In this document: positions 8,064 through 28,974 of the stretch, piece by piece
How positions within the stretch are numbered: the stretch's first letter is position 1
Layout: every line of letters begins with the position of its first letter
DNA from: a virus
Lineage: Duplodnaviria; Caudoviricetes
IMG/VR virus record: IMGVR_UViG_3300026522_000021
Direction: 5' to 3' (one strand)
DNA length: 64,000 nt
Program-made: the position numbers and the translations under genes
Notes under the pieces: generated by a model
Database searches by the model: none
What the model saw: only the letters and a program-made list of their open reading frames with translations
What the model was told of the DNA's origin: nothing

Positions 8064-8819
8064 TTATGCTATACGAATTATTTGTTCATACAAGCAAATA
8101 AATTTCCCCATAACTTGTTCATTTCTATGCAGATGCGCGAAGAACCATTTCGTAAATTTTAATCCATCCCATAACAATTCATTGAAATACCATGTCAATT
8201 TATCTCTGTCTGTAAATCCCATGACAGACTGTACTTCTTGAGGCGCACAATGGCTAATCACAAAATCAACTTCATTGTTTACAGCCTTTAAAGATTGTCG
8301 CCCACGTTCCATCTCTTCATCATTCGGCATTTCTTGATCCCACCATGATACGCCCCTGACACGAAACATCTTTCCGTACTTCTGCCATCTCCTATATGTA
8401 TCTCTAAAGTCATCCATGTCTACGAAATCATTAGGGTCTAAAATTCCATCTTGAATATCGTGCGAGCTTGCGCCTCCAAAGGCAAAGAATTTTTTATCGC
8501 ATATATCAAACACGTAACCGCGCATTAAATGATAAATATTATCCCTGATTTTGTGCGCTTTACCACCGTGGAAATCAACAATAGGATACGTGTAAAGCAA
8601 ATCGAAATTCTCATGATTTCCATCAACGAACAGCGTTGTAAACGGTTTATTATTCAGCCAATCAAGCCAATACTTTTCATCTTTTGAGTTAGACCATACC
8701 AGACCAAAGTCACCTAAGATAATAACGAAATCATCACGCGTCATTTCTTTCTGTTCTGGAAAACTATCTACGCTAAATCGGCGTGGATCTCCATGAATGT
8801 CACCTGTGCAATAAATCAT
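8064..8819 (-). CDS. Calcineurin-like metallophosphoesterase
   Basis: GDIHG, GDFG, GNHE, AHLH motifs. Confidence 0.9.
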   Translation of the reverse strand: MIYCTGDIHGDPRRFSVDSFPEQKEMTRDDFVIILGDFGLVWSNSKDEKYWLDWLNNKPFTTLFVDGNHENFDLLYTYPIVDFHGGKAHKIRDNIYHLMRGYVFDICDKKFFAFGGASSHDIQDGILDPNDFVDMDDFRDTYRRWQKYGKMFRVRGVSWWDQEMPNDEEMERGRQSLKAVNNEVDFVISHCAPQEVQSVMGFTDRDKLTWYFNELLWDGLKFTKWFFAHLHRNEQVMGKFICLYEQIIRIA

Positions 8820-9445
8820 TCGTCATACCTCTCTAACTTTTGTTCTTTGGTTTTCAAAATGAAATCCCTGTATTCTTCATAGTCCTTGAACTTGATGTAT
8901 TCACCATTGATTACATCGAAACAATTTTCATTTCTGGCAAATTCATATGCGTTTGCGCTGATAACAAAGTAAATGTCTTTATTCTTTTCTGTTTCTATAA
9001 CCAATGGAATAAGACTTTCTTTTATATCAATCACATTGTCAATACTTAATCCGCTGTCAATAGCATCAAACAAGAACCATAGTTCTTTAGCATCTGGATT
9101 TTCCTGCGACATGCGCCCCATTTTTCTGGCTATATCTTCAAGAACGTTTACAATGTTTTCGCCTTCGCTACTCATCATTGTTCTTGCTACGATATCAAAA
9201 TTTCCCCAAAATGCAGCCTTACTTCTTAACTCTCTCTCGCCGTCATGCATATTGCTATGAAACAGCACAGGAATATCTTTGTTTTTCAAACTTTGATTTA
9301 TTTGATTGAGAAGTGTAGTCTTTCCTGCGCCATTACATCCAACAAGAACAGTTAGCCCTGTATTTATTTTGATTTGCTTCTTCTTAAAGATTGCAAACCC
9401 ATCATCACCATACCAATCATTTGATAATCTGAATTGTCTGCTCAT
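8816..9445 (-). CDS. ABC/AAA-type ATPase
   Basis: Walker A GCNGAGKTT, SSEGE signature-like, FLFDAID Walker B. Confidence 0.8.
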   Translation of the reverse strand: MSRQFRLSNDWYGDDGFAIFKKKQIKINTGLTVLVGCNGAGKTTLLNQINQSLKNKDIPVLFHSNMHDGERELRSKAAFWGNFDIVARTMMSSEGENIVNVLEDIARKMGRMSQENPDAKELWFLFDAIDSGLSIDNVIDIKESLIPLVIETEKNKDIYFVISANAYEFARNENCFDVINGEYIKFKDYEEYRDFILKTKEQKLERYDE

Positions 9446-9897
9446 ACTAACATTCCATCAAGAATACTACTTACAAGTTTACCATCGGCTTTGCCTTTGA
9501 CTTTAGGCATAAGCTCTTTCATAATGATGCCTTTACTTTTCTTTGTTGCTGGATTATCAGAAGTAAAGCCAAGAGACAACATGACATCTTCAATAACGGC
9601 TCTGATCTGTGTTTCATCCATCAATTCAGGAGCAAACTTCTTTAGTGTTTCTATCCTTCTCTTGCATTGCTCGATAATATCCGTCCTATCTTCTGGACAC
9701 ATATCTAATGTTTCCTGCGTCTGACGGATTTCTTTATAAACAACTTCATTCTCTTCATCTTCTGTAAGCTCACGTTGTTTATCAATCTCTGCATTCTTTA
9801 ACGCAGAAAGAAGCAATGAAAGCGTATCTTTTGTTTCTTGATCGCGAGCCTTCATTGCATCAACCATGCACATTCTTACATAATCTTCTTTCTTCAT
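9442..9897 (-). CDS. GatB/YqeY domain protein
   Basis: AMKARD..LKNAEIDK..KGIIMKELMPKVKGKADGK. Confidence 0.85.
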   Translation of the reverse strand: MKKEDYVRMCMVDAMKARDQETKDTLSLLLSALKNAEIDKQRELTEDEENEVVYKEIRQTQETLDMCPEDRTDIIEQCKRRIETLKKFAPELMDETQIRAVIEDVMLSLGFTSDNPATKKSKGIIMKELMPKVKGKADGKLVSSILDGMLV

Positions 9898-9956
9898 CTG
9901 GTTTCCTTTCTAAAAATGGCGCAGTGTATTTCAACCGCGCCATTATCTTGCCTTAT

Positions 9957-10640
9957 TTATTCATCTTTCTTTTCAGCTTTTTCCAATTCATCGAGAAGCC
10001 CTTTGAAAGACTCTTCAAGTTCTGCGGACGCTTGCTTTGATACTTCGCCGATAGCTCTCTTATATGCTTCTGTCATTTCGCGGATACGATCTTCGCGCTT
10101 CTTGTTCTCGGCTCGTCTTACTTCCTGTTTGATGGATGCAAGTTTAGCCCTTTCCTCTTTGGCTTTCTTTGCTTCTTCTTCTCTCTTTTTCTTTGTCGCG
10201 TCAAGCTTGCCCAATGCGTACTTGATAATTTTGTTGTAAGCGGACGATCCTGTGCCAATGATATCCATCTCGGAAAGCAGTTTCTTTACAACACAGATCA
10301 GAACACCAACTTCAAGGCTGAATACATCACCATCATTAAGATGCGCAACTTCTTTTGTTCCGTCTGCGAACTCAACGAATACAGTCTTGTCATTTGGATT
10401 AGATACATTAACAATGTCTGGCATGATACACGTACGTCCAATGATACCATTGTCGGCATTCAGATAACCAAGATAAAGATCACCATCTTCTGCAAAAACT
10501 GTACTTCCAACCGTGTTTTCTTCCATGCATTCTCGAAGATATGTAATCGCTTTATCTGGCAATATTAGTTCACCATTTTCATTGTAAAGTCCACATTCAA
10601 CTACTTTTGCTTCAATTCCATCCATAATTGTTTCCTCCAT
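9957..10640 (-). CDS. Hypothetical protein with coiled-coil C-terminus
   Basis: 227-aa ORF; charged helical C-terminus. Confidence 0.6.
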   Translation of the reverse strand: MEETIMDGIEAKVVECGLYNENGELILPDKAITYLRECMEENTVGSTVFAEDGDLYLGYLNADNGIIGRTCIMPDIVNVSNPNDKTVFVEFADGTKEVAHLNDGDVFSLEVGVLICVVKKLLSEMDIIGTGSSAYNKIIKYALGKLDATKKKREEEAKKAKEERAKLASIKQEVRRAENKKREDRIREMTEAYKRAIGEVSKQASAELEESFKGLLDELEKAEKKDE

Positions 10641-10660
10641 GAGTTAATTTATAGTGGCAG

Positions 10661-10741
10661 TGCGGATGAAGGGATTCGAACCCTTACGCCATTTGGCATT
10701 AGTTCCTAAGACTAACGTGGCTGCCGTTACACCACATCCGC
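10661..10741 (-). tRNA. tRNA-Leu(TAG)
   Basis: GCGGATG acceptor stem, CT-TAG-GA loop, long variable arm, GGTTCGAATCC. Confidence 0.9.
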
Positions 10742-10748
10742 AATTTAC

Positions 10749-10839
10749 AAGGCGCATTTGTTGTTTGGTGTCCTTGTCGGACAAATACGATAACCCTAAT
10801 CATCAGCTTGTAAACATTTGAAATTGCTGTATGCGCCTT
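10749..10839 (-). ncRNA. ACAGCAA-motif RNA 1 (terminal-stem type)
   Basis: AAGGCGCAT/ATGCGCCTT stem, ACAGCAA after the 5' strand, internal hairpins. Confidence 0.7.
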
Positions 10840-10884
10840 TCGATATGAGAAAATATTTAAGAATATGTAGAAATAATCTACACA

Positions 10885-10958
10885 TGGAACATACAGGACT
10901 CGAACCTGTAACTTATCGGTTATGAGCCGATTGCTCTGACCAATTGAACTAATGTTCC
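10885..10958 (-). tRNA. tRNA-CAT (probably Ile2, otherwise Met)
   Basis: GGAACAT stem, ATCGG-CTCATAA-CCGAT arm, GGTTCGAGTCC. Confidence 0.88.
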
Positions 10959-10964
10959 AAACAT

Positions 10965-11161
10965 AATCAATATCAATTCGCCTCGTCAATAATTACTCAA
11001 CCGCCGAAACGCTTTTAGTTGGTTTGCGTTGCCATCTTCGTTACTCTGCCATTACTCTTTCAAGTTCATATCCACAGCAGATATTCTTAATTTTCATGGT
11101 TTTCGCTACTTAATCCTTAACATCCTCGCCTCATTACCGGCGATTTGAATTGATATTGATT
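10965..11161. ncRNA. Putative structured RNA closed by a 15-bp perfect stem
   Basis: AATCAATATCAATTC (10965-10979) pairs with GAATTGATATTGATT (11147-11161); ORF-free, inside the tRNA operon. Confidence 0.5.
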
Positions 11162-11368
11162 TGTCCGCATTGACTCGTCCTGTTCTCAGCCCCAACAACC
11201 AGACCACCATCACGCACTATGGGCAGAACCAATCAACCGATATTCTATTACGTTGTTGCGTTCGTAATATATTAGTAAATTCTGGTGCGTCAGTCATCAT
11301 AAGTGAATAAGTATATATCATTTCAACTTATTCCATCCTTGTTTACGGATGCTTTACTTATTTCTGAT

Positions 11369-11449
11369 TGCGATGATTTGGATTCGAACCAATACCTCGC
11401 CCACGTTTCCCATGTCTACAGGCGTATGCTACCTTTTACAACACACCGC
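11369..11449 (-). ncRNA. tRNA-like RNA with expanded anticodon arm
   Basis: GCGGTG/CATCGC acceptor, GGTTCGAATCC T-arm; CGCC/GGCG stem encloses TGTAGA plus a CATG-GGAAA-CGTG hairpin. Confidence 0.6.
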
Positions 11450-11583
11450 TTTTCAGTTATTCCATACCTTTACATCTGTACTATGGTTAGCTACACCATC
11501 GCCACCCTCACACTTTTGTTAATCTTTCCCTTAATGCTATTCTCTGGATAACTTTTCTGAATTATTCGCGATATAATTCATAG

Positions 11584-11665
11584 TGCTTGCGGAGGGAGTC
11601 GAACCCTCAATCCGTCTGGCGTGTGAGCTTAAATCACATGTGTATTCCATTTCCACCACGCAAGC
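11584..11665 (-). tRNA. tRNA-Leu(TAA)
   Basis: GCTTGCG stem, TT-TAA-GC loop, long variable arm, GGTTCGACTCC. Confidence 0.88.
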
Positions 11666-11705
11666 ATGTGTGTAAAGACCCTTACAATAAACTTTACACG
11701 TATTT

Positions 11706-11807
11706 TGTTTAGCGACCTCAAGAAAGTAAACCAAATGACAACATACACACTGAAACACAAAGCACAAATCTATTTATAGGAGGAGATACCACTATGGCGC
11801 TAAAACA
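11706..11807 (-). ncRNA. Putative antisense sRNA complementary to the shared early-gene leader and RBS
   Basis: Terminal stem TGTTTTAGCG/CGCTAAACA; loop contains CAT..CTCCTCCT..TTTGTGCTTTGTGT..GTGTATGTTGT..GTTTACTT. Confidence 0.55.
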
Positions 11808-11824
11808 GGTTTTAGAAATCTTAA

Positions 11825-11952
11825 CAGCGAGGACAGGACTCGAACCTGTAACCTACGGCTTCCTGAATGCGTAACGTTAAAATTGCTGCGCGTATCTAAT
11901 ACAAGATACGTTGTTTGTTTTTACGTTGCTCTGCCAGTTGAGCTACCTCGCT
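11825..11952 (-). ncRNA. ACAGCAA-motif RNA 2 (tRNA-scaffold chimera)
   Basis: AGCGAGG acceptor, canonical D- and T-arms; insert hairpin CGTATCT/AGATACG followed by CGCAGCAA. Confidence 0.8.
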
Positions 11953-12022
11953 GATGTTGTGGATGTGGCAATGGAAAACCAAGGCAAGAACCCACATCCA
12001 CTAATATGAGTGTTCTGAAAAC

Positions 12023-12088
12023 TAAGCGCATATAAAACTTTATCAATGACTGTCAGAAAAAGATTTTATAGTTTGCTGTTCGCGCTTA
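12023..12088 (-). ncRNA. ACAGCAA-motif RNA 3 (terminal-stem type)
   Basis: TAAGCGC-GA-ACAGCAA...GCGCTTA; directly downstream of the DUF2828 gene. Confidence 0.7.
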
Positions 12089-12098
12089 AATCTATGAT

Positions 12099-13598
12099 TT
12101 ACAGTAATCCTTCTACGGCTTCTCTTACTTTCGCGTAGCGTTCTCCATTCAGCGTTTCAAGAAGAACTTTGTAAGGATCAACCTGATTGCTCATGAACAT
12201 CTTCAGGATTTGAACCGAAAATCCACTGCAAAGAATAAGCCCCATATCATTCTGTTGCATCGGGATTGTTCCATTCAAGCGACCGCTTAAATTCCAGAAA
12301 CAAATCTTCGGAAGTTTATATCCTGCGTCCTCGAATTCCTGTGCGATTTCATCAAACAGGCTCTTGTTGAGATTGTGTGAACGACCGTCAAACTGCATGT
12401 CGGAACAAATCACGATCATCTTCGGCATATCTTCCGCAGAAGTATGATTTCTCTTTGCTGTTTTCAGGATCAGCATCATAGTCTTATAGATGTTCGTGTT
12501 TGAACAATCGGATTCGCGCAAGGAAAGATCAACTTTATCTGCAAGCGAATCGCAATTTGACAGATCGACAATCTTCGGATTGGATGAGAAGGTAATAAAC
12601 TTATCTTTCCAATCGCCTGTATTGTGTTCTGACATGTAAATTGCAAGTGCGGTTGCTACATCTAAAGGTGTACCACTTCCTGCAAAACTTCCCCATGTCA
12701 TAGAACCAGAACCATCACGAACAATCAGTGTGTTCTCTACAGACAGATCAGGAAGTGCCTTCCACAGCGCTTCGAGCGTTGCATCTTTTCTGCATCTATT
12801 CTGGCGATACTTCAGGCAGATCTCATGCGGATTAAGCGTGCTTGCGTTAATCTTTGCAGTGCCTTTTTCAAGCGATGCAAGATATTCGCGTCTACGATCC
12901 TCATCATTCCGTAAGAATGCGCTATTGTAGATCAGATTAGCTTTAGAAGGCACAGTTTCATAATTGATCTTATCCCATTTCTTAGCACTCATTTTGACCT
13001 CTACAACATCAAGATACTTTCTAAGTTTGGATAAAGTCTTTCTGTACTTCTTCTCTGTCCATCCAAGTTCACGGCAGATTGTTTTAGCTCTGTCAACTGT
13101 TATCTTGGATGATGCATTGACGCTCGGCATCCACTTCGCACACAGAGAAATCGACTTGCCTTCCTTCATGTTGGCTTTATCTTCTTTCAGCTGCGCCTTG
13201 ATTAAAGCGATTGCCTTTCCTCTCGTTCTTTCATCGTCAAGCATAACCATGACGCTATCCCAACGATTATAGAATGGGATAAGATCAATGATAGCCTTTG
13301 CGATCTTCGGCTGTTTTTCTGCAAGATAGCTCAGTCCAGCTCTGAAAGCTTTTCTCTCACCAAGTCCTTCACGGACATCGCCAAGATAGAAAAGATATTC
13401 AAGCGCTGTCAGCTTATCCTCAAAGAAAACTTTCATGAAATCTTCTTTGATCGCTTCAGGAAATCTGTTACGCATAGCAGATACTCCAAAGTTGAAATCA
13501 AGAAGTTTCTTTCCTGCTGTTGCATAGGCGATCGCGCCGTTTGTGGTTACTGATTTGCGAGTGTTCAATTCATTTTGCATTTCATCGAAGAAACTCAT
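12099..13598 (-). CDS. DUF2828-family TROVE/Ro60-like protein with C-terminal vWA domain
   Basis: TTNGAIAY, DVREGLGER, SLCAKWMPS; MIDAS RDGSGSM; SDMQFD; FWNL. Confidence 0.85.
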   Translation of the reverse strand: MSFFDEMQNELNTRKSVTTNGAIAYATAGKKLLDFNFGVSAMRNRFPEAIKEDFMKVFFEDKLTALEYLFYLGDVREGLGERKAFRAGLSYLAEKQPKIAKAIIDLIPFYNRWDSVMVMLDDERTRGKAIALIKAQLKEDKANMKEGKSISLCAKWMPSVNASSKITVDRAKTICRELGWTEKKYRKTLSKLRKYLDVVEVKMSAKKWDKINYETVPSKANLIYNSAFLRNDEDRRREYLASLEKGTAKINASTLNPHEICLKYRQNRCRKDATLEALWKALPDLSVENTLIVRDGSGSMTWGSFAGSGTPLDVATALAIYMSEHNTGDWKDKFITFSSNPKIVDLSNCDSLADKVDLSLRESDCSNTNIYKTMMLILKTAKRNHTSAEDMPKMIVICSDMQFDGRSHNLNKSLFDEIAQEFEDAGYKLPKICFWNLSGRLNGTIPMQQNDMGLILCSGFSVQILKMFMSNQVDPYKVLLETLNGERYAKVREAVEGLL

Positions 13599-13639
13599 AA
13601 TTGCTTTACCTCTCTTTTCTTAATTTGTGGTTGCAATTC

Positions 13640-13704
13640 AAGGCACTGGTTGTGGTTGTAAGATTAAAAGTCTTATCCATAATAGTGGTTGCTGTATGTG
13701 CCTT
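13640..13704 (-). ncRNA. ACAGCAA-motif RNA 4 displaying a Lys(UUU) anticodon stem-loop
   Basis: AAGGCAC-AT-ACAGCAA...TAAGA-CTTTTAA-TCTTA...GTGCCTT. Confidence 0.8.
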
Positions 13705-13712
13705 AAATGTAT

Positions 13713-13830
13713 AGCGCACGATTGGATTCGAACCAATGACAAATTCTTCTGTGTATTAAGTTGCTGATTGCGATTATCGCTAACCGCGTTTAACAAATTA
13801 AAACTGCACTACCAACTGTGCTACGTGCGC
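13713..13830 (-). ncRNA. ACAGCAA-motif RNA 5 (tRNA-scaffold chimera, no anticodon loop)
   Basis: GCGCACG acceptor, D- and T-arms; insert GCGGTTA-GCGA-TAATCGC-AA-TCAGCAA. Confidence 0.8.
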
Positions 13831-13846
13831 CATCCCTTTCGGGAAA

Positions 13847-14002
13847 CAGCAGTGACAGGAATCGAACCTGTGCTTGCAGCTTGACCAAGTAAACTTGCTG
13901 TGTGTTCCTTTAATTCCCCGACTCTAACTCGTCTATGCGGTTACTCTCGGTGGTAACAAGAAACATTTATATGCTGCCGTGTTCCCACTTCACTACACTG
14001 CC
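13847..14002 (-). ncRNA. ACAGCAA-motif RNA 6 (tRNA-scaffold chimera, large insert)
   Basis: GGCAGTG/CACTGCT acceptor; GCAGC/GCTGC stem encloses a TGTTTCTT/AAGGAACA helix followed by CACAGCAA; GGTTCGATTCC. Confidence 0.8.
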
Positions 14003-14005
14003 GCG

Positions 14006-14130
14006 CCCATCGTGAAGGATTCGAACCTTCCCCTCAAGTTTTGCAGACTTGTAATTGATATATAACTTTGCTGTAGGTGTTTACACTAAACACACAATCA
14101 AAAGATATGCTACCTCTACACCAACGATGG
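14006..14130 (-). ncRNA. ACAGCAA-motif RNA 7 (tRNA chimera retaining a Cys(GCA) anticodon arm)
   Basis: CCATCGT acceptor; insert GTGTTTA-GTG-TAAACAC-CT-ACAGCAA; then CAAGT-CTGCAAA-ACTTG; T-arm. Confidence 0.8.
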
Positions 14131-14148
14131 GATATTCAATTTTTAAAC

Positions 14149-14212
14149 AAGACGCTATGATGGTAATATAAGTTAACAGCTTATTCCTTCATATAATTGC
14201 TGTATGCGTCTT
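14149..14212 (-). ncRNA. ACAGCAA-motif RNA 8 displaying an Asn(GUU) anticodon stem-loop
   Basis: AAGACGC-AT-ACAGCAA...ATAAG-CTGTTAA-CTTAT...GCGTCTT. Confidence 0.8.
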
Positions 14213-14225
14213 TCAGTTTTAACAC

Positions 14226-14315
14226 AAGGCACTTTATTTTGATGGACTTGAACCATCTCGCAAAGACTTTGAATGTTTTTACTTTAACCGATGTTAAGTT
14301 TGCTGTATGTGCCTT
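14226..14315 (-). ncRNA. ACAGCAA-motif RNA 9 (motif stem in place of acceptor stem; D-, anticodon- and T-like arms)
   Basis: AAGGCAC-AT-ACAGCAA, ACTT-AACATCGGTTA-AAGT, AAAAC-ATTCAAA-GTCTT, GATGG-TTCAAGT-CCATC, GTGCCTT. Confidence 0.75.
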
Positions 14316-14336
14316 TCTTGTTATCTTGCAATACCT

Positions 14337-14365
14337 ATTATAGCATATCGTTCTCGGCTTTGCAA
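14337..14365 (-). promoter_or_regulatory. sigmaA promoter driving the ACAGCAA-RNA/DUF2828 operon
   Basis: TTGCAA-17-TATAAT with extended TG; about 20 nt upstream of RNA 9. Confidence 0.8.
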
Positions 14366-14478
14366 GTATTATTTTGAATTATTTTTAATGTAGTTTTGAT
14401 TTCTCGCGATCACTACAAGCGCACAGTTTCTTACTTTTTATGATGTTAGTTTAGAACTGCAAAAGCAACCATTCATCG

Positions 14479-14551
14479 TGCGCCAGATGGGACTCGAACC
14501 CATGACTTTTCGATTAAAAGTCGAATACTCTACCATCTGAGTTACTGGCGC
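14479..14551 (-). tRNA. tRNA-Lys(TTT)
   Basis: GCGCCAG stem, TTCGA-CTTTTAA-TCGAA, GGTTCGAGTCC. Confidence 0.93.
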
Positions 14552-14555
14552 GTAA

Positions 14556-14629
14556 CAGGCGCAGTAGGAATTGAACCCACGCTCACGCAGCTTTGGAGGC
14601 TGGTAGACTTCCAATTATCTTATACGCCT
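14556..14629 (-). tRNA. tRNA-Trp(CCA)
   Basis: AGGCGTA stem, CAGC-CTCCAAA-GCTG, GGTTCAATTCC. Confidence 0.85.
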
Positions 14630-14633
14630 TTAG

Positions 14634-14953
14634 TGGAGTAGAGGGGAATCGAACCCCTGTCCAAAACTACTCTATAAATATCCTTTACGCCGTTTGGGTT
14701 TGTACTGATCTGAATTTACAGATTCAACTCCGTCTGTCCACCACCTGTTTCACCGTCTTGTATAACAGGAACTTCAATCAGACATTACTTCGATCTTCAG
14801 CATTGACCGTCTAAAAGAATTACTGAAGATAGATGTGGCTCACGCCGCCATCCGATTTTCTGTATAATCAGCGTTTATATTTAGGTTTGATGATTAAGTC
14901 ATCACTCTGGCGAGATATTTACTTTGTAACCCTGTCGAAACCTTTACTACCCC
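14634..14953 (-). ncRNA. ssrA: tmRNA; predicted tag (A)ADYTENRMAA* at 14872-14840
   Basis: 5' GGGGTAGTAAAGGTTTCGAC, 3' GACAGGGGTTCGATTCCCCTCTACTCCA with G3.U70; ATAAAC-GCT resume context; tag ends in AA. Confidence 0.92.
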
Positions 14954-14961
14954 ATATATAA

Positions 14962-15032
14962 CAGCGGTTGAGGGTAATGCTCCCCCTTGTTCTGGGTCAA
15001 AGCCAGACGTATTACTTTTATACTAAACCGCT
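14962..15032 (-). tRNA. tRNA-Gln(TTG) with non-canonical T-loop
   Basis: AGCGGTT stem, TCTGG-CTTTGAC-CCAGA, T-loop AGCATTA. Confidence 0.8.
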
Positions 15033-15040
15033 AAAACTTC

Positions 15041-15215: not shown

Positions 15216-15593
15216 CTAATCACAATAGCCTTTAATTAGCTCTAAACCGTATTTATCCAAGACCTTCTCAACCGCATCCCAATAATATCTTCCACAATCT
15301 TCATTGTCGATAACAAATACATTCTCATATTTCGGTTCTTCTTCGTCAGTCCAGCTGTAAATCTGATAAGGTACATCAATATATTCTTTGATCCTAAAAT
15401 GTCCAACACCGTTTCCAGTTACGTCAGACCAATCAAATTCATCTTCATCTTCATCTTCATCGCTCCAATGTTTATACTCTTCATTCGCCATTTCCAGAAG
15501 AATATCAAGCAACCGTCCGCGTGTAACTTTGTCTCTGGATATAATGAAGCTGCTTGAACTACTGTTGGTTACAAAGTCTCTTCTAATCTTCAT
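15216..15593 (-). CDS. NSSSSS-leader protein 1
   Basis: MKIRRDFVTNSSSSSFII; acidic body. Confidence 0.85.
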   Translation of the reverse strand: MKIRRDFVTNSSSSSFIISRDKVTRGRLLDILLEMANEEYKHWSDEDEDEDEFDWSDVTGNGVGHFRIKEYIDVPYQIYSWTDEEEPKYENVFVIDNEDCGRYYWDAVEKVLDKYGLELIKGYCD

Positions 15594-16177
15594 TAAAATC
15601 TCTCCAATGACTCTTTGAAATCATGATACGTCTTGTACTTTTCTTTCCACGATGCTTGAATATCGCCAAGTTTCAAACCATATTTGTCAACCACATAAGC
15701 GATATACTCATAATCGTATAGCTTACGTCTACGCTTATTCTGCTTTTTAATTTCCTCAAAAACTTCATCCTTCGGATCTTTATACTGTGTTAATAGATAG
15801 CTTGCCATATCATAAGAAGAATACTCTTCAAACTGGCAGATCGGACACAGGCATTCTGGCACTTCATAATATCTTTCTGATCCTAAAAGCGTTTCGAATA
15901 ATTCATCATCATCCATTGCTTCAAGCTCTTCACGAGTATAATGAAGATCATATTCTCTGGTTTCTTCATTCCAATAATCGTTTTTCAAAATTTCATTTAT
16001 TTGTTCTTCGCGTGAAGGGTTGAGCATATGCTCCTGACATAATACATGCCCATTTTCACATTCAAACATATCAAAATCTTCTACACTTGCATCCCATCCA
16101 GAACCTTCAGCGCCGCAAATCTCACATACAAAACTACTGGATGAGCTATTCGTCACAAAGTCTTTTCTAAATTTCAT
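15593..16177 (-). CDS. NSSSSS-leader protein 2 (Cys-rich, probable Zn-binding)
   Basis: MKFRKDFVTNSSSSSFVCEICG..CENGH..CPIC. Confidence 0.85.
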   Translation of the reverse strand: MKFRKDFVTNSSSSSFVCEICGAEGSGWDASVEDFDMFECENGHVLCQEHMLNPSREEQINEILKNDYWNEETREYDLHYTREELEAMDDDELFETLLGSERYYEVPECLCPICQFEEYSSYDMASYLLTQYKDPKDEVFEEIKKQNKRRRKLYDYEYIAYVVDKYGLKLGDIQASWKEKYKTYHDFKESLERF

Positions 16178-16178
16178 A

Positions 16179-16451
16179 TTAACTCCAACTAAATTTTACT
16201 GCCGTTGTTGGCACACCTATCAATTCAAGAAATCTTTGCATATCAAAATTATCTATAATGGTATAACCATGTATAAAATATTCGCCTTCATCTATCTGCC
16301 AGTAATCATCAAGATAATAATCTGGCATTATTTCAGGGGCATAATCTTGATAGTTAAATATCTTTTCCTTTTGTTCATCAGTAATAGCAGACTTCGCTAT
16401 TACGAAACTGCTACTACTGCTATTGGTCACAAAGTCAAATCTTATCTTCAT
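16179..16451 (-). CDS. NSSSSS-leader protein 3
   Basis: MKIRFDFVTNSSSSSFVI; start moved to 16451 by alignment with its paralogues. Confidence 0.85.
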   Translation of the reverse strand: MKIRFDFVTNSSSSSFVIAKSAITDEQKEKIFNYQDYAPEIMPDYYLDDYWQIDEGEYFIHGYTIIDNFDMQRFLELIGVPTTAVKFSWS

Positions 16452-16459
16452 TGTTTCCC

Positions 16460-16927
16460 TCAATGATGACTAAATCTTTGGATAGTGCAATCAAGTCTCG
16501 GCATAATTTCATGCTCCAAATCGCCGTTACAATGGTCATCATATTCTACAAGTGCGAGATAACCAAGTCCTTCGATCTTCTGTTTGAATTCTTCAAACCA
16601 CACATCAAGCCTTTCATTTACAGCCTTATCGAACTCATTTTTGTTTTCTGGCTTCTCAATCCAGTCATAGAAATCATGCCACCCAAGCTTTCTTTCGTAT
16701 TCATGCTCAAGAATATACCTTGCATCCCAATACATTTCATCTTTGAACTCATGCAAAGCTTCTTCTTTTGTAATTTTATTTCTCTTGACATCGTTCAACA
16801 CGGTATCAAATCTTTCGCCTAAGTAAAGCTCGTTTCTAAGTGCTTGCTCAACACTTCCTTCATCTTTAAATCCTACAATAAAACTACTGCTGCTCGAATT
16901 TGTAACATAATCTACTCTAATTTTCAT
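16460..16927 (-). CDS. NSSSSS-leader protein 4
   Basis: MKIRVDYVTNSSSSSFIV. Confidence 0.85.
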   Translation of the reverse strand: MKIRVDYVTNSSSSSFIVGFKDEGSVEQALRNELYLGERFDTVLNDVKRNKITKEEALHEFKDEMYWDARYILEHEYERKLGWHDFYDWIEKPENKNEFDKAVNERLDVWFEEFKQKIEGLGYLALVEYDDHCNGDLEHEIMPRLDCTIQRFSHH

Positions 16928-17352
16928 CAGTCATCTCCAGCAAGAATAATGAAATCATCGGATTTTAATTTTAAAAATAGCTCTCCTCTATAATCATCGT
17001 AAGCTATATCTTTCATTAAAATCTTGTATCCTTCATTCATCTTTTCTACACACTCATCATAAGTATCTCTAACCCAAGGATCATCTTTACATAACTCTTC
17101 AAATGTTTCGCACCCATACCCATAATCTTCAAAGAAATAGCGGCGCAAATCTTCCTTGTTTTCAAAAACTTCACTTTCTGTTGTTTCGTATGAGCCTCCG
17201 CTGCCCATCACAGCTTCTTTCACTATTCCCTGATACACTTCAAGAAATGGATATTTCTTCAATGTATCATTATCAATTTCTGGCAAACCTTTAAATGCTA
17301 CAATAAAGCTACTGCTGCTTGAATTCGTAACAAAATCATTTCTTATTTTCAT
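16927..17352 (-). CDS. NSSSSS-leader protein 5
   Basis: MKIRNDFVTNSSSSSFIV. Confidence 0.85.
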   Translation of the reverse strand: MKIRNDFVTNSSSSSFIVAFKGLPEIDNDTLKKYPFLEVYQGIVKEAVMGSGGSYETTESEVFENKEDLRRYFFEDYGYGCETFEELCKDDPWVRDTYDECVEKMNEGYKILMKDIAYDDYRGELFLKLKSDDFIILAGDD

Positions 17353-17860
17353 TTCCTACTATATTCCTCCCAATCAGAAAGAATTGCCATGACTAACAAA
17401 AATATATCAAGTATAAACCCACATCCCAAGATAAGCATAAACACAGCTAATAAAACTGTTGCCATTGTTACAACCCACCAATCTTTATCATGTGTTTGCC
17501 ACTGGAATTCCTATAGACTCACTTACCAGACCTTTTGATTTCGTTTAAATATCTATAGTATTCCTGAACGTTTCCATGTGACCAATAATCATCAAGTATT
17601 TCTTCCTGTTTCTTTGTATCAAATATTCCACCGAAAAGCTCATCTAATACGTCATTTCCAAATAAGCCCATATCATTCACCGTCATATGGCTCTGATAGA
17701 TTGCGCCACGCCACGACATTCAATCCCTTTTCTTTGTTGATATTAAAGCCGAACAGATTATTAGGATTATAAATGTCGTGAATTACACATCTTTCTCCTG
17801 TCGCTTTATCTTCTACCGTCACTTCATATACATTTTCTTCTCTTGGATTTCCGTCATCCT

Positions 17861-18193
17861 TTACGGATCTCCATACCTCATCCTGAAATGTTTTGTATCA
17901 TCTGCGTTAATATAATACATAAACAATCTATAGAAATCCCCATATTCATCTCCTGCCATACCGATATAAAAATTCCAGTCATCAATCGTTAAGTCAGGAT
18001 CATAATCAAAGTTGTCTTTGATTTCTTCGATTGCCTCTTGTGTAGTCAGACCATAATGCTCCGAGTATCTTTTGATTATATCCATGTTGCTTTCAATTAA
18101 ATTATTTAATTCTTCTTCGCTAAAATCTTTATGCAAAGCAACAATGTATGAACTCGAAGAACTGTTTGTCACAAAATCTTGTCTTATCTTCAT
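17861..18193 (-). CDS. NSSSSS-leader protein 6
   Basis: MKIRQDFVTNSSSSSYIV. Confidence 0.85.
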   Translation of the reverse strand: MKIRQDFVTNSSSSSYIVALHKDFSEEELNNLIESNMDIIKRYSEHYGLTTQEAIEEIKDNFDYDPDLTIDDWNFYIGMAGDEYGDFYRLFMYYINADDTKHFRMRYGDP

Positions 18194-18703
18194 ATTATCC
18201 TCTAAGGAATAGCCACTTCAACCAGTCTGGCAAATCGCTATTTATAATCACACCAAAATACCATTTGTTTAGTGCGATAACTGCCACAACAATGACAGCT
18301 ATCGCAATCGCAATTAAAATCTTCTTTACCATTTCTTAATCCCAAGCGTAAAGAAACTCATGTTCATTTGGCTTGCTGTATTTAGCGAAATCATTTTCTT
18401 GATCGTCAAGTTTTGCAAACCGTTTCTTTTCGCTGTGTTTATAGTTCTTCTTTCCGTACCAATCACTGTTGGTTTTATCATAGTCCGTTCTGGTTTCCAG
18501 ATGTTTACACTTTTTAAAACGTCCAACATCACCGACAAATTCTTTCGATGATACTCCAGTCACATCTTCATAGACTTTTGCCTGATGAACAGCCTTATTA
18601 AATGTTTTCTTGCGTCTTTCACCTCTATCGCACATAATGACCCCCACTAAATGTACTAATATAGTCAAAAACTTTCCAATAAAATCCGTCTTTTATTGGA
18701 GTT

Positions 18704-19468
18704 TTACGCAGATGTTAATTCGGCTTCTATTTCATCCTCAAATCTCTGCTCAAGCTCCAATATAGACTTTCCATTCCCTTTCATCGGTTCGCATAATCTG
18801 TATTCAAGACCTTTCAATCTCTTCCAATACTTCGGAAGATACCGATAAATAGATTTTAATTCCTTCAAGTTTTTATTTCGGCAGCACCAACAACTTACTC
18901 GATCTAAACAATCATATAGATCAACCCCACCCTCTTGCCACGCATAACCTTTGCTTCTGCAATATCTCAGGCAGTCTGCTTCGGTCATATTCCATTCGAC
19001 TAAAGGGAGAACCTTTCCTTCATGCTTTGCTTTCTCAAATCGTTGCGGCTCGTCAGCTGCAATTCCAACATAATCAGTCACATCATCATCAATAGTTTTC
19101 TTAAACTTGTCTATTGCTTGTAACTTTCCAGATGTTCCCCATCTACAAGCTCCACCACACCAACTGAAGCCATAATGATAACCTTCTTGTTTTCTATACT
19201 TGACTTCCCTGATTAACATAGAGATCCAGAATGGTTCTTGCGGATGCAGTTCAACGTATTCAATATTTAATTCTTTTAGTTTCGATTTAATTTCATCTCT
19301 TATATGATAGATTGAATCGAATTCCATTCCTGTATCGTAAAATACTACATAGTCAAGCGGATAATTCTTCTCTATCAACATAAGTAACATTGCTAAACTA
19401 TCTTTTCCAAAACTTACACTTGCAATATATTTCACACCGACCACTAACCAGATCGCGGCAATGGTCAA
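18704..19468 (-). CDS. PAPS-reductase-family (PP-loop) protein
   Basis: SVSFGKDS PP-loop, DTGMEF, GIAADE, RVSCWCC. Confidence 0.85.
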   Translation of the reverse strand: MTIAAIWLVVGVKYIASVSFGKDSLAMLLMLIEKNYPLDYVVFYDTGMEFDSIYHIRDEIKSKLKELNIEYVELHPQEPFWISMLIREVKYRKQEGYHYGFSWCGGACRWGTSGKLQAIDKFKKTIDDDVTDYVGIAADEPQRFEKAKHEGKVLPLVEWNMTEADCLRYCRSKGYAWQEGGVDLYDCLDRVSCWCCRNKNLKELKSIYRYLPKYWKRLKGLEYRLCEPMKGNGKSILELEQRFEDEIEAELTSA

Positions 19469-19623
19469 TTATTAAATCCTCCCATGCTAATGGCAATGCC
19501 TTCACGCTGTAACTAATAATTCTACACGCAACTTATCAATCTTTGCGAAACCCGGTCTACCGGGATTGGTGTTACTCCTTTTCTTTATTTTTTAAAATTA
19601 AATTATTTTGCATTATTTATTTC

Positions 19624-20442
19624 CTATTCACCGATATAAACCAACTTGTCTATGTATTCTCTATCTTCTCCTGCAAAAATCGGTATATTATCATCGGCAA
19701 CCCAATCAGAGCCACAGTATTTTACACAACTTCCTCGTTTCATAACGGTAGGATAATCATCCCAATTTACACCTTTTTCTTTGAGTAACATTTCCTTTAT
19801 TTCATTGCAACTCTTATTCTGAAGTTGTTTCTGCGTGAAGCATGATTGCCCAAGCATTTGTATACTATTTCTTATTGCATCAAGCTGTCTCCAATAGAAA
19901 TAATTTGTCACTTCTTCTTTTGTAAGATTAAAACATCTGGAGTCGAACATTGCGCCCCTTATTTTGGCTTTATAATAGACTTCATGTTGCTTCAATATTT
20001 TTCTTTCGTTATCTGATAAACGTCTATTTGTTCCACCTTCATCCCAATCTTCAATATTTTCTCTTCCAAACATATCAATGTTTGCCTCAAAATTTCTATT
20101 GAATATAAGAGTTGCTATAGAAGCTGTTACGCTACATACCTTTTGCACTTCATAGCCAAAGAACGCTTCAGTGTTTAATGATTTATAATCAATCAGCAAC
20201 AAAGAAATCTCATCGGATTGATGATAACCAAGAACGCATCCCTGAATGTTCACGCATAAATACTTCATCGTATCTTGCATAGTTTTTATCAATAAAGAAT
20301 CAAACGGCTTTTCAAAACATCTTGTAAAAGTATGAAATGCTTTTCCGTCAATGCGTATAATAACTGGCATCCTTCTTATTAAAGAGTTTTTTGGAACGCT
20401 CTCATACGTTTTCATCCTCTTTGCCAAATCGCTATTATCCAT
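19624..20442 (-). CDS. Thg1-like tRNA(His) guanylyltransferase / 3'-5' polymerase
   Basis: IRIDGKAFHTFT, YHQSDEISL, FDSR, WRQLDAIRNS. Confidence 0.92.
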   Translation of the reverse strand: MDNSDLAKRMKTYESVPKNSLIRRMPVIIRIDGKAFHTFTRCFEKPFDSLLIKTMQDTMKYLCVNIQGCVLGYHQSDEISLLLIDYKSLNTEAFFGYEVQKVCSVTASIATLIFNRNFEANIDMFGRENIEDWDEGGTNRRLSDNERKILKQHEVYYKAKIRGAMFDSRCFNLTKEEVTNYFYWRQLDAIRNSIQMLGQSCFTQKQLQNKSCNEIKEMLLKEKGVNWDDYPTVMKRGSCVKYCGSDWVADDNIPIFAGEDREYIDKLVYIGE

Positions 20443-21514
20443 TATTTATCCTTTCTTTATCACATAAAACAATCTCACTTCTAATCGGGCATCCTCCCAT
20501 ACACTCTCTTCTTCTTTCGCAATTCGGACACGAATTTCTAAAATGATTTCTGAAATCTTCAAACACTTCACTGTCCCATGCGTTCTGAATAGTATCGTTT
20601 GAAATGTCATACGCCCATTTCATGTCCTGATTGTCAAAGCTGCACGGCAGAGCTTTCATGTCTGATGTAATATACATTGACCATCTACCGCCCTCGCAAG
20701 TGTCAAAACTATCAGGATTGATTTTTGTTGTGAAATTGATTAGTCCGGGAACAGTACAGCTATCAAACCCGATTTTAAAATCATGATCGTAATTTTCTAC
20801 AATATTGAAAAACTTAGAAACTCTGCTATCGTTCACCTGTAAAACATTATCGGATTGACCAAGCCCAACAGGTTTATGAAGAAGGAATATAATCGCATTA
20901 ACGCCCTTTGGAAAATCGTTATCCTCAAGTCTTTGAATTGCTTCGTCAATGGAATTTTTTCCGAGAACATAATGGATGTTTGTCTTTACTCCTTCATCAA
21001 TAAGCATCTTAATTGCTCTAAGTGTATGTGGCTGTCTGTACCAACTGATTGCTACTGCGCCGCAATACTTCCTGCAAAGAGAAACAATCTCGTCATTAAA
21101 TCCTAATCCCGAAGATGTGAAATTAGGAACGATATTATTTTCGCGGCAGTATTGAAGGATCTCTTTGAAGTTTTCATGTTGATCTACATCGCCACGACCG
21201 CCAAGCGCAAGCTGATAACATTTTCCTTTACACTCATCAACAATTCTTTTAAAGTTTTCCAATGTCATGTTTGGATATTTCGTTTCAAGTCCGTTCTGAT
21301 AACACTGAACACCTGACTTGATACATAATCCGCTGCGTCCATGCTTGCAAAATCCCATTACGCCCACATCTATCAGTTCAGGGAATGAACTCATAAACGG
21401 ATCAACGCCTGTATCTTTCCCATGTTCATCAAGAATACCTGACCGCATATAGAACCCTGTATCTGGATTAAACATTGAAATGTATCTGTTCTTCTTGTCG
21501 TATTTGCGAATCAT
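20435..21514 (-). CDS. Radical SAM/SPASM protein with expanded cluster motif
   Basis: CKHGRSGLCIKSGVQCY (CX7CX6C), ALGGRGD, SPASM CEGGR..LPCSF..CPNC..CMGGCP. Confidence 0.88.
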   Translation of the reverse strand: MIRKYDKKNRYISMFNPDTGFYMRSGILDEHGKDTGVDPFMSSFPELIDVGVMGFCKHGRSGLCIKSGVQCYQNGLETKYPNMTLENFKRIVDECKGKCYQLALGGRGDVDQHENFKEILQYCRENNIVPNFTSSGLGFNDEIVSLCRKYCGAVAISWYRQPHTLRAIKMLIDEGVKTNIHYVLGKNSIDEAIQRLEDNDFPKGVNAIIFLLHKPVGLGQSDNVLQVNDSRVSKFFNIVENYDHDFKIGFDSCTVPGLINFTTKINPDSFDTCEGGRWSMYITSDMKALPCSFDNQDMKWAYDISNDTIQNAWDSEVFEDFRNHFRNSCPNCERRRECMGGCPIRSEIVLCDKERINNG

Positions 21515-26470: not shown

Positions 26471-26974
26471 TTAGTAAGCATCAAGAATTGGAAACTGTGA
26501 CTGCATAGCACGGCAGATGCGCATAAGCATATCAACGTCTTTTATCTCGCCCATATAGTATTTTAAATTTTCCTTCTGCACAGTTGTTAACTGCTCTATA
26601 AGTAGTGTACTCGGCGCAGTCAGTCCGTATTTCTTATGATCCCATATCTCCACATGGCAAGGCAGATTTCTTTTGTTCATTTTAGTTGTCAACGGAATAG
26701 CATTTATCACCGTGCTATGCTGATTGTTCTTGTCATTCGAGATAATAAATACTGGTCTATGACCGCCCTGAATACTGCCATCCTGTGACGGAAGATTAGC
26801 CATCCAGATTTCTCCGCATTTAACATCACGACTTTCAGCCCCGATGAATTCAACACTATTATTTTCGTATTTAATGAAGAACGTCATAGGCTGCGCAGAT
26901 TTTCCATCTCGTCTTGCCTGTGTTCTTATTCTTGTTGATGCATTCATCATAAGCCTCCAGTCTCCAGATACCAT
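26471..26974 (-). CDS. PemK/MazF-family endoribonuclease
   Basis: GEIWMANL..GSIQGGHRPVFIISND..N..VINAIPLTT..LLIEQLTTV. Confidence 0.88.
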   Translation of the reverse strand: MVSGDWRLMMNASTRIRTQARRDGKSAQPMTFFIKYENNSVEFIGAESRDVKCGEIWMANLPSQDGSIQGGHRPVFIISNDKNNQHSTVINAIPLTTKMNKRNLPCHVEIWDHKKYGLTAPSTLLIEQLTTVQKENLKYYMGEIKDVDMLMRICRAMQSQFPILDAY

Positions 26975-27706
26975 TAAAAATCATCTAATGGTTTAGTTAT
27001 GTTGTCATTCGATTTCCTTTTTACATAGAAATCATATCCGGGTTTAATCAACACCAGTTTTCCACATCTCGGAAGATCATAACCAAAGTAAGGCTTTTTA
27101 TCTTTATTCTTATTCAGTTTGATCCTCATGAACCGTCCAACCGCATTGATAATTTCCACCGTGCGATCATCTGATTTGTTTGTGTATTTGATTGTACCAT
27201 CATTCTTTAAATCGCCAGTGCCAATGAATAACCCTGTTGTCTTGTGGTTTATTCCAATAAAGTATCTATTCCAATTCATGTTACCACTCCTGAAATATGT
27301 GGTGTACTGCATCGAACAATACACCACATTTTCCATTATTCTTCTGTAGCTTCATTATAATGTTTTTCGTTTTTATAAATGTTCTCCTCGTATTCAAATG
27401 CTTCTTTTGCATCCTCAAAACATTTACCGTCACTTGCCATCCATGTAGCGTTTACAAGAGTAAGACGATCTTTAATTCTTGTACGATAGCTTTTTGAAAT
27501 GAAGCCGCTGTTGCCATCAAAATACTGCTCTGGTATCAGTTCCTTCGCCCTAACCTTCATCCATCCGTTGCCATTATTATTTCCTGCCGCCGAAGGAGAA
27601 TAGATCAAAGCCATGATATGATTTTCCTGAAACACGCTAAACACATCAACCATACAGTTATGTTTCTTATAATACATTCTCTCCATCGTTATCGCCCCCA
27701 AACGTG

Positions 27707-28857
27707 TTACATGTCTACTTCTTCAGGCTCGTTCATGAAGTCAGAAGAAACATCCTCATGTTTTTCAATATCGGATTTTTCTGCTTCTTCAACGCCATCA
27801 TCTTCATGTTCATCGGATGCCTCGATATCCACATCATCGAAGAACCGATCCCATACCTTTTCGATCTCATCATGTCTGCGCTTGATATTCGCGTTCTTTG
27901 CAGAACCACCCTTGCAAGCATCGGAGTAAGCATCGGACACGATCACGCCATTTCCGAAAAGTTCTACCATGAAATCGCCCATCAGCTTATCAGAAATCTC
28001 ATCATCAATAGCCTGTTTGATCCACGGAACAAGCGAGATCATATGCGTTTCAGAAACCATTTTCTTTCTAACAGCCTTCGCAACCTTCGCATTGTCGTAC
28101 TCCTCAAGCACATTATAGATTGCGTAAATCTTATCCAGAACAGAAACGACCTCATCGCGCTCGGCATCGCTCATCTTCGTTTCCTGCATCACTTCGTTGA
28201 AAGTTCTGCTTTCAAAAGATACATCATCAATGTCCTCGTTCAGCATCATCCATACCTTCATGATGATCGGGAGCTGCTTTCTGGTTGCAAGCGCCTTTTC
28301 GGTCATGGTGTTCTGGAAAAGCTCATGCTTTCCAATATCAGAAACGGTGATGATGTCAACACAGTTAGCAATGTTGCGCTCTTTAGTGGAAAGGGGCTTT
28401 CCATTGTTCAGCTTCGCGAACAGCATCCGAACCTGTTCAGGAGTGATATCCTCGTAATAGTAGATCGTCAGGTGATAATCCTTGATTGCATCCTGAATCT
28501 CTTCGGGAAGGTCTTTAAAGTATTTCCCTTCAAGCCATTCCGTCTGCTCATTGCCCTCTGCATCAGTATATGTAATCTCAGGAACGCCAATCAGGTAATA
28601 CTCGTTCTCGATGAAGCCACGAATAGCATTGATGCGCTGCTTTCCATCAAGGAAATCATATGTTCTTCCGTCAACCTTCTTTGCGTAAAATGGCGGTACA
28701 GGATATCCTTCAATCAGGGAATGAATCAGGTTACTCTTCCTTGTCTGTTCCCATACATAGGATCTCTGGATGATATTGTCGAAACTGAATGTTCCGTTTC
28801 CTGCCATTTTCGCGATCTGCTTACAACTCCATGTAATGTTTGCTTTGTTAAGTGCCA
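27707..28857 (-). CDS. DUF262 (GmrSD/ParB-like) domain protein
   Basis: IQRSYVW, LIHSLIEGYPVP, LDGKQR, FAKLNNGKPL; start placed at MALNKA after GGAGG. Confidence 0.85.
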
Positions 28858-28974
28858 TTTCTTTATCCTCCTTTGTTTGATTTGCTTTGTGTTCTTTGTT
28901 TACTACCTCTCTATGTGAACATGTTACCACATAAAGAGGTAGATGTCAACTATTATTTTGAATTATTTTTTAAT

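Follow-up and report, generated by a model that had tools for sequence, protein, structure and literature searches.

An N-terminal tag shared by diverse phage and bacterial proteins is coupled to a divergent radical-SAM/SPASM enzyme

Six otherwise dissimilar proteins encoded in a 64,000-nucleotide stretch of viral DNA (IMGVR_UViG_3300026522_000021; Duplodnaviria, Caudoviricetes), here called the window, begin with the same serine-rich sequence of 16 residues, the tag, and lie close to the gene of a divergent radical S-adenosylmethionine (SAM) enzyme with a SPASM domain. We found that the tag almost never occurs without this enzyme family in phages or anaerobic bacteria, and that the reverse holds as well, the enzyme being almost always accompanied by tag genes. 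In a complex model, residues 1–10 of the tag are predicted to lie in the active-site barrel of the enzyme, which is the usual site for a peptide substrate. On balance we consider it probable that one radical-SAM enzyme serves many client proteins that are modified post-translationally, most likely in the conflict between phage and host.

Results

Six proteins of the window share an N-terminal tag

The six open reading frames (ORFs) are on the minus strand (Table 1) and have the N-terminal sequence MK[IF]RxD[FY]VTNSSSSS[FY] in common. All six were confirmed, and a six-frame motif scan of the window returned exactly six copies. Each gene starts at the higher coordinate listed in the table; the positions given in the earlier note, which was made from the letters of the DNA, are the low ends. 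For tagged protein 4 the start at 16451 is an ATG, and a TTG four codons upstream is also listed. Invariant in the six copies are M1, K2, R4, D6, V8, T9, N10 and S11 to S15, which makes 12 of the first 15 residues. Beyond residue 20 the bodies are 24–40% identical with zero conserved columns, and HHalign left the six bodies mutually undetectable (probability <5%). The proteins are acidic, with isoelectric points (pI) of 4.3–4.9 and net charges of −8 to −21. Neither the shared tag nor several of the whole proteins contain any cysteine. Since the serine codons of the tag are mixed (AGT, AGC, TCA, TCG, TCT and TCC) and among the copies the 51 nt that encode the tag share merely 59–84% identity, the tag is conserved at the protein level. 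The ORF list, the six-frame scan and the codon comparison thus bear out what the earlier note had described: six acidic proteins with a common start, diverging bodies and varied serine codons.

The body of tagged protein 2 belongs to the same family as the single tagged proteins that adjoin the enzyme in bacteria. Tagged protein 3 shares a C-terminal ...LEH...SHH ending with the protein RB16p111 of the T4-like phage RB16, and the subfamily of tagged protein 5 is frequent among the best matches of the tag profile described below. When the six clients were scanned with Pfam, NCBIfam, PHROGs and PADLOC, just weak matches to phrog_7397 and phrog_2900 were obtained, both of unknown function. No model of Pfam, NCBIfam or PADLOC covers the tagged proteins.

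The tagged proteins have a common predicted layout

Tagged proteins 2 and 3 were modelled with AlphaFold2 (AF2). The model of the 141-aa protein had a predicted local distance difference test (pLDDT) score of 88.6, with residues 1–11 below 50 and a strand at 13–20. The 155-aa protein was modelled at a pLDDT of 93, with residues 1–9 below 50, a strand at 13–20 followed by helices, a strand at 123–130, a helix and a strand at 148–153. Both models have the layout beta1 (S13–F20), variable helical insert, beta2, alpha, beta3. The C-terminal sequence patterns are similar in most other clients; the 194-aa client showed no clear fit. Because of the common layout and these similar patterns, we regard the clients as probably very divergent paralogues on a minimal core, and likely not as unrelated cargo with a portable tag.

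Comparison of 14 tag-stripped body families with HHalign merged just two pairs. The 141-aa model had no Foldseek match in the PDB at E ≤ 0.001, and in a wide VIA-align search the 155-aa model matched nothing but a helical hairpin of generic type (Z ≤ 7.2). A search of the ESM Atlas gave only the protein's own family, and a feature search of the Atlas led to unnamed viral clusters.

The tag defines a large protein family

With a profile built on residues 1–30, a search of 1.84 billion cluster representatives gave 14,108 matches at E ≤ 1e-3, nearly all of which have the tag at residue 1 of proteins of 33–290 aa with many different bodies. Tagged proteins longer than 340 aa were looked for and not found, which is weak evidence, and cultured phages yielded no tblastn match to the 141-aa client. 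As the identity of the enzyme falls from 96% to 26% and the similarity of the bodies drops below detection, the tag remains nearly invariant. In Anaerotignum (L235:2410-3414) a tagged protein of 335 aa carries BspA-type leucine-rich repeats, and this is the sole client found with a known domain.

The searchable literature gave no account of the tag motif, of phrog_7293, of post-translational modification by a phage radical-SAM enzyme, of the radical-SAM protein of RB16 or KP15, or of AVAST together with radical SAM. The FxSxx/SPASM peptides (PMC7159879), whose motif is C-terminal, belong to a different system.

The enzyme is a divergent member of the SPASM family

The 3' end of the enzyme gene is 2.24 kb upstream of the first tag gene. 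The earlier note had reported a radical-SAM gene with a CX7CX6C motif and a SPASM domain about 2.2 kb upstream on the same strand, and this was confirmed by the motif C56-x7-C64-x6-C71 and by the SPASM models (PF13186, 24.1 bits against a cut-off of 21.5; TIGR04085, 27.1 against 27). The three cysteines and the following Tyr-Gln are invariant in an alignment of 17 enzyme sequences. The same cysteines are spaced, depending on the clade, as CX3CX2C, CX5CX3C, CX7CX6C, CX7CX8C or, in RB16, CX7CX2C; the CX3CX2C spacing is found in deep clades and expanded spacing elsewhere. Homologues with the canonical CX3CX2C (37–40% identity) use the same columns as C56, C64 and C71, so that the three-cysteine site of radical-SAM enzymes is present. 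Residues G20 and G26 of the N-terminal hairpin are also invariant in the alignment, and the hairpin motif recurs in RB16p156. One viral clade is Twitch-like and has no final CxxCx5CxxxC block.

The family comprises 4,317 clusters at 90% identity, for which the best name is 'radical SAM protein with 4Fe4S-binding SPASM domain'. Among solved proteins, the family profile was closest to SkfB, PqqE, the anaerobic sulfatase-maturating enzyme (anSME) and BtrN, all of them weak matches. SkfB was the best (E 2.7e-5), with the radical-SAM core aligned over positions 57–292, and the likeness to anSME and BtrN was confined to the SPASM part (E 0.006–0.017). None of the NCBIfam anSME models matched the enzyme at E ≤ 0.01. 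The Pfam and NCBIfam scans, which use sequence models and were not accompanied by a structural search of the enzyme, found no PqqD-like recognition element (RRE). In PADLOC-DB 2.0 the window enzyme and the tagged proteins had no match, and a homologue with the canonical motif had a weak generic match to pVip. Some homologues lie in ORFs of 619–786 aa, about twice the normal length (L037:5961-8318, L076:5602-7935 and L038:1458-3314), which suggests inteins or fused homing endonucleases.

Table 1. Coordinates of the tag and enzyme features and of other genes (window positions unless a locus is named)
Feature	Coordinates	Strand	Remarks
Tagged protein 1, 110 aa, pI 4.3	17861..18193	-	weak phrog_7397 match; body cluster 13
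Tagged protein 2, 141 aa	16927..17352	-	body cluster 0, with 72 bacterial proteins; partner in complex model
Tagged protein 3, 155 aa	16460..16927	-	AF2 model, pLDDT 93
Tagged protein 4, 90 aa	16179..16451	-	body cluster 4
Tagged protein 5, 194 aa, 7 Cys	15593..16177	-	zinc-ribbon-like body, CxxC...CxxGH.xC; body cluster 2
Tagged protein 6, 125 aa	15216..15593	-	body cluster 11
Radical-SAM/SPASM enzyme, divergent, 359 aa	20435..21514	-	proposed writer; Pfam SPASM E 4.5e-5; phrog_7293 E 2e-23
Cluster-binding motif C56-x7-C64-x6-C71-Y	21299..21349	-	three Cys invariant across clades
N-terminal hairpin of enzyme (YISMFNPDTGFYMRSG)	21437..21484	-	predicted docking strand for tag residues 1–5 (complex model)
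SPASM region: C253, C273, C291, C329-x2-C332-x5-C338-x3-C342, C351	20453..20764	-	Pfam/NCBIfam and Cys positions
Thg1-like gene (tRNA-His guanylyltransferase)	19624-20442	-	between enzyme and tag array; not part of module
PAPS-reductase-like gene	18704-19468	-	between enzyme and tag array; not part of module
Avs1-like operon	L163, L164, L191, L205, about 5600-12400 in each		tag and enzyme inside
tmRNA	14631-14953	-	Rfam 92 bits; ARAGORN tag peptide ADYTENRMAA
tRNA genes	10660-15033		
Over-long tRNA-like Rfam matches (118–156 nt)	11825-11952, 13713-13830, 13847-14002	-	not called by ARAGORN
TROVE/DUF2828/vWA RNA-binding protein	12099-13598	-	
927-aa protein	53136-55919	+	PF05183 E 2e-7
MazF/PemK-like toxin, GmrSD_N (DUF262) protein, integrase-family protein	26471-29898	-	side by side
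C5 cytosine methylase	1719-2663	-	zinc-ribbon/HypA-like insertion

Tag and enzyme co-occur in viruses

The enzyme was present within 10 kb in 53 of 77 viral tag loci, usually ending right before an array of 1–7 tag genes, and up to 10 different tagged proteins were found for a single enzyme. In the commonest type of viral tag locus without a nearby enzyme, the latter is about 29 kb away on the same contig, beside a second array. Starting from the enzyme, 1–7 tag genes follow downstream in 68 of 77 viral loci; most of the others are cut contigs, and a variant tag is found at the enzyme loci L119 and L120. In most related phages the array begins right after the enzyme, and the Thg1-like and PAPS-reductase-like genes that separate the two in the window are elsewhere or absent. 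Therefore, we do not count these two genes as part of the module.

The cultured T4-like phages RB16, KP15, Miller, Matisse and their relatives have an enzyme of just 26% identity with a CX7CX2C motif. In RB16, two MKIRSGFVSNSSSSSF proteins are encoded 20 kb from the enzyme and are thus unlinked. The RB16-type enzyme was found in 166 records and homologues of RB16p111 in 175, with matching genus counts.

A tree of 85 enzymes contained a bacterial clade linked to Avs, a viral Twitch clade, a clade with phage arrays and, nested, a clade of bacterial modules with a single tag gene. Nearly all full-length loci in every clade have tags, and the few tips without a tag are short or cut loci.

Tag and enzyme co-occur in bacteria

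In bacterial genomes representing species, the enzyme adjoins the tag in 72 of 80 tag loci. In many of these loci the enzyme is directly preceded by just one tagged gene of about 124 aa, an order opposite to that in phages, and there is one tag per genome. For the orphan bacterial tag loci, the enzyme was found elsewhere in the genome in all five tested. An even sample of 201 genomes of the family Lachnospiraceae had the enzyme in seven and the tag in four, and all four tag genomes were within those seven. The three genomes with only the enzyme are broken or fragmentary. In-frame TAA stops interrupt the enzyme homologues G072:C4:124430-125497 and G131:C7:57808-58869, and the tag was not detectable in either genome; these copies are probably decayed modules. 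The host labels on the contigs include Lachnospiraceae, Clostridium, Sporomusa, Desulforamulus, Fretibacterium, Desulfobacterota and Gastranaerophilales, which are known as anaerobes.

Taken together, the co-occurrence spans a reversal of the gene order, unlinking of the genes by 20–115 kb, phages and six bacterial phyla, and divergence of the enzyme to 26% identity. The earlier note had suggested checking its idea by the co-occurrence of a tag profile with the enzyme, and these counts agree with it. Tag proteins commonly present without the radical-SAM gene, which it had named as part of the evidence to the contrary, were not found.

The tag is predicted to dock in the enzyme

The enzyme was modelled with ESMFold2 together with the 141-aa client, three clusters and SAM, and three controls were run. 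The interface score ipSAE was 0.62, 0.58 and 0.65 for the complex and 0.00 for all three controls. The mark for this score is reached by 58 of 80 solved complexes and by 2 of 110 mismatched pairs, which holds only roughly for the present case. The runs agreed in at least 63% of the contacts, and the pLDDT of the partner was about 50. The confident interface consisted of tag residues 1–10 only. On the enzyme side, it is predicted to involve residues 19–26 of the N-terminal hairpin, the acidic residues D34, D38 and D49, and the conserved residues Q101, N131, T133, G152–A155, K177, H181, N206, D251, D268 and D271 at the top of the barrel, and the lowest expected error was found for enzyme residues 19–26 against tag residues 1–7. 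Modelling of the tag with the enzyme had also been suggested in the earlier note, and the outcome, a tag predicted to dock in the barrel, is in line with it. Covariation of tag positions 4 or 6 with the contacted enzyme residues was not clear enough to use.

The bacterial modules are found in defence islands

The neighbours of the bacterial modules include a restriction-modification system with a PIF1 helicase, Cse1, and MADS-like and PDC genes. In four genomes the pair is inside a six-gene operon that encodes an Avs1a-like metallo-beta-lactamase (MBL) protein, a trypsin-STAND NTPase, a 133-aa protein, the tagged protein, the enzyme and a 313-aa M1E1E6-like protein. The PADLOC matches (Avs1a, Avs2 and Avs1b) are to neighbouring genes and not to the tag-enzyme pair. 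The remaining recurrent neighbour is a protein of about 120 aa, upstream in 22 loci, which resembles a helix-turn-helix (HTH) regulator by eye only. In the 80 bacterial loci we found no other conserved candidate substrate gene beside the pair and no conserved protease or transporter. Single chromosomal copies of the tag exist that have no phage structural genes nearby.

Other features of the window

The window is a large low-GC phage-like genome with tRNAs, a transfer-messenger RNA (tmRNA), TROVE-like and Thg1-like proteins and a putative YonO-like RNA polymerase. The phage-borne tmRNA is situated amid the tRNA genes. Three tRNA-like matches of Rfam are over-long and may be tRNAs with introns or insertions. 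The Thg1-like gene overlaps the 3' end of the enzyme gene by 8 nt. Near it and the gene resembling a 3'-phosphoadenosine-5'-phosphosulfate (PAPS) reductase is the gene of the TROVE/vWA protein, and the three look like an auxiliary set for RNA repair. A link through vWA proteins was dropped, as the one encoded between the two tag genes of RB16 is not related to the TROVE/vWA protein of the window. The 927-aa protein has a weak match to the eukaryote-type RNA-dependent RNA polymerase fold and may be the YonO-like phage RNA polymerase. The coding strand and the GC skew switch near 48–50 kb. A toxin, a GmrSD_N protein and an integrase-family protein form one group of genes, and the cytosine methylase has an insertion (Table 1). 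A scan of the window for promoters and terminators gave counts not above those of shuffled controls, and no near-identical DNA was found in cultured phages.

Discussion

We propose that a client consists of three parts. Residues 1–10 (MKIRxDFVTN) would be a free unstructured peptide, S11–F20 with the serine run and a hydrophobic stretch would form strand 1 of a minimal three-stranded alpha/beta core, and a hypervariable acidic insert would follow between strand 1 and strand 2. For capture, tag residues 1–5 may pair with the N-terminal hairpin of the enzyme, with conserved acidic residues of the enzyme near K2 and R4. Residues 5–10 would then run across the open top of the radical-SAM barrel beside the SPASM domain, where the 5'-deoxyadenosyl radical could abstract a hydrogen and start the modification somewhere in V8–S13. 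By precedent only, candidates for the chemistry are oxidation of the T9 or serine hydroxyls as in anSME and BtrN, a cross-link of an aromatic residue to a C-beta or an ether cross-link, and epimerisation. All six paralogues of the window would be served by one enzyme. Since the module is found in bacterial defence islands and in accessory regions of phages, a role of the modified proteins in phage-host conflict is probable, with their variable bodies as putative binders.

The earlier note had suggested a phage system for post-translational modification of a portable poly-serine tag. The link that it drew from tag to enzyme is supported by their co-occurrence and by the modelled docking. However, the system is not specific to phages, as shown by the bacterial two-gene modules and the Avs1-like operons. 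Nor does 'portable poly-serine tag' describe it well: it is residues 1–10 that are predicted to enter the enzyme, the serine run begins strand 1 and the bodies are probably divergent paralogues.

SPASM and Twitch enzymes mostly modify peptides or proteins. CrpC modifies a whole protein (PMC13692751). The maturases of peptides that are ribosomally synthesised and modified post-translationally (RiPPs), such as SkfB, PqqE, SuiB and CteB, resemble the present system in that one enzyme is encoded beside several substrates with a conserved N-terminal recognition sequence, and in the predicted beta-strand pairing and the path of the peptide across the barrel near the SPASM domain. In contrast to the short RiPP precursors, the clients here are folded proteins of 90–345 aa, and their conserved N-terminus is probably not a leader in front of a variable core but the very part that is modified. 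No conserved protease or exporter was found in the 80 bacterial loci, and the expanded spacing of the cluster motif, the phage arrays and the defence-island modules are further differences. The Pfam and NCBIfam sequence models gave no match to a PqqD-like RRE, and a two-stranded hairpin at the N-terminus is predicted to do the strand pairing in its place.

The anSMEs AtsB and anSMEcpe are likewise SPASM enzymes of anaerobes; their target is a short motif close to the N-terminus of a complete protein, in which they oxidise a serine or cysteine, and the present tag is rich in Ser and Thr hydroxyls. However, the sulfatase motif C/S-x-P/A-x-R is absent from the tag, and no client was found to have a sulfatase domain. 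The pairs CrpC/CrpA of Methanococcus voltae (PMC13692751) and QhpD/QhpC likewise consist of a SPASM enzyme and a protein-sized substrate encoded beside it, but these enzymes install cysteine thioethers in Cys-rich proteins, whereas the tag is free of cysteine. Among phage proteins, the capsid-targeting sequence of the T4 internal proteins is similar as a short N-terminal peptide on diverse small proteins. Unlike that sequence, the tag is also present in bacteria, as single copies on the chromosome, and it goes with a radical-SAM enzyme and not with a prohead protease.

Several points weigh against modification of the clients by the enzyme. The modification itself is a proposal, and its chemistry and the modified site are guesses. 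The window enzyme had no match to the Pfam Radical_SAM model (PF04055) at E ≤ 0.1, has an expanded CX7CX6C loop, lacks an aromatic residue before the third cysteine and has GGRGD in place of GGE. Because of these features its cleavage of SAM is putative; its homologues P0180 and L006:1879-2904 scored 37.9 and 36.3 bits with PF04055, against a cut-off of 29.5. The docking score is ESMFold2's own confidence and could echo solved complexes of RiPP maturases with peptides, and in the complex the client body was modelled poorly, at a pLDDT of about 50. All five invariant serines are outside the confident interface, so that docking alone does not explain their strict conservation. Two tag-bearing viral contigs, G002 (78% complete) and G003 (84% complete), showed no enzyme. 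Finally, the co-occurrence counts are not independent events, since many come from related phages and from one mobile operon.

Other explanations were considered. The tagged proteins might be regulatory or adaptor subunits whose tag plugs or gates the active site while the body senses or recruits a phage or host protein. In that case the enzyme would really act on a nucleotide, an RNA or a third protein, in the manner of sensor-effector defence systems. We regard this as unlikely, but it is the strongest alternative. The modules are in defence islands and, in four genomes, inside the Avs1-like operon; the bodies are hypervariable and one has BspA-type repeats; and a tag modelled in the active site suits an inhibitor no less than a substrate. 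The bacterial gene order, in which a small acidic protein comes before the enzyme and an HTH-like protein is upstream in 22 loci, is like that of antitoxin and toxin. However, up to 10 tagged proteins per enzyme suit clients better than stoichiometric regulators, SPASM/Twitch auxiliary clusters and a peptide across the barrel are typical of enzymes with peptide or protein substrates, and the pair has no other conserved gene beside it that might encode the substrate.

It is considerably less probable that the tag is just the best-conserved part of one small fold, or a signal for assembly, packaging or export, and that its link to the enzyme reflects ancestry and synteny. In agreement with the fold idea, which the earlier note had itself raised against its reading, S13–F20 is strand 1 of the core in both models, whose layout is common, and many loci are from related phages. 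Yet residues 1–10 are the most conserved and are unstructured in both monomer models, and the co-occurrence outlasts the reversed order, the unlinking, the transfer between phages and six phyla and the divergence of the enzyme. Single chromosomal copies without phage structural genes nearby and the tracking of the enzyme also speak against a shared assembly or targeting strand, which the earlier note had offered as its second explanation. Least probable of all is that the tag is the site of another process, either trypsin-like cleavage after the invariant K2 or R4, for which the Avs1-like operons have a trypsin-like STAND protease, or autoprocessing at Asn-Ser or Ser-Ser bonds, which are known sites of it, while the enzyme has a separate task in that pathway. 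Just four of 80 bacterial loci contain the protease and no phage array that was examined does, and the complex model and the co-occurrence indicate direct contact of tag and enzyme.

Returning to the modification of many clients by one enzyme, we tentatively suggest a wider picture in which this is a previously unrecognised radical-SAM tagging system of the arms race between phages and bacteria. The tag would mark thousands of fast-evolving small binders, and the dedicated enzyme would install a new modification needed for their activity, with arrays carried by phages and single copies by bacteria, in defence islands and within Avs1-like operons. In cultured T4 phages of the RB16 and KP15 types the system is a core feature, and since Escherichia coli phage RB16 and Klebsiella phage KP15 have it, ordinary genetics and mass spectrometry can decide the question. 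A short, transferable and enzyme-specific tag could also serve protein engineering. If our reading is true, SPASM radical-SAM enzymes would have a new type of substrate and possibly a new chemistry, and a function would be given to two genes of the Avs1-like antiviral operons and to core genes of Klebsiella and Enterobacter phages that are therapeutic candidates. The class of modified proteins so defined would be large and unannotated, with at least 14,000 clusters of tagged proteins (50% identity) beside about 4,300 of the enzyme (90% identity), in gut and other anaerobic bacteria and in their phages.

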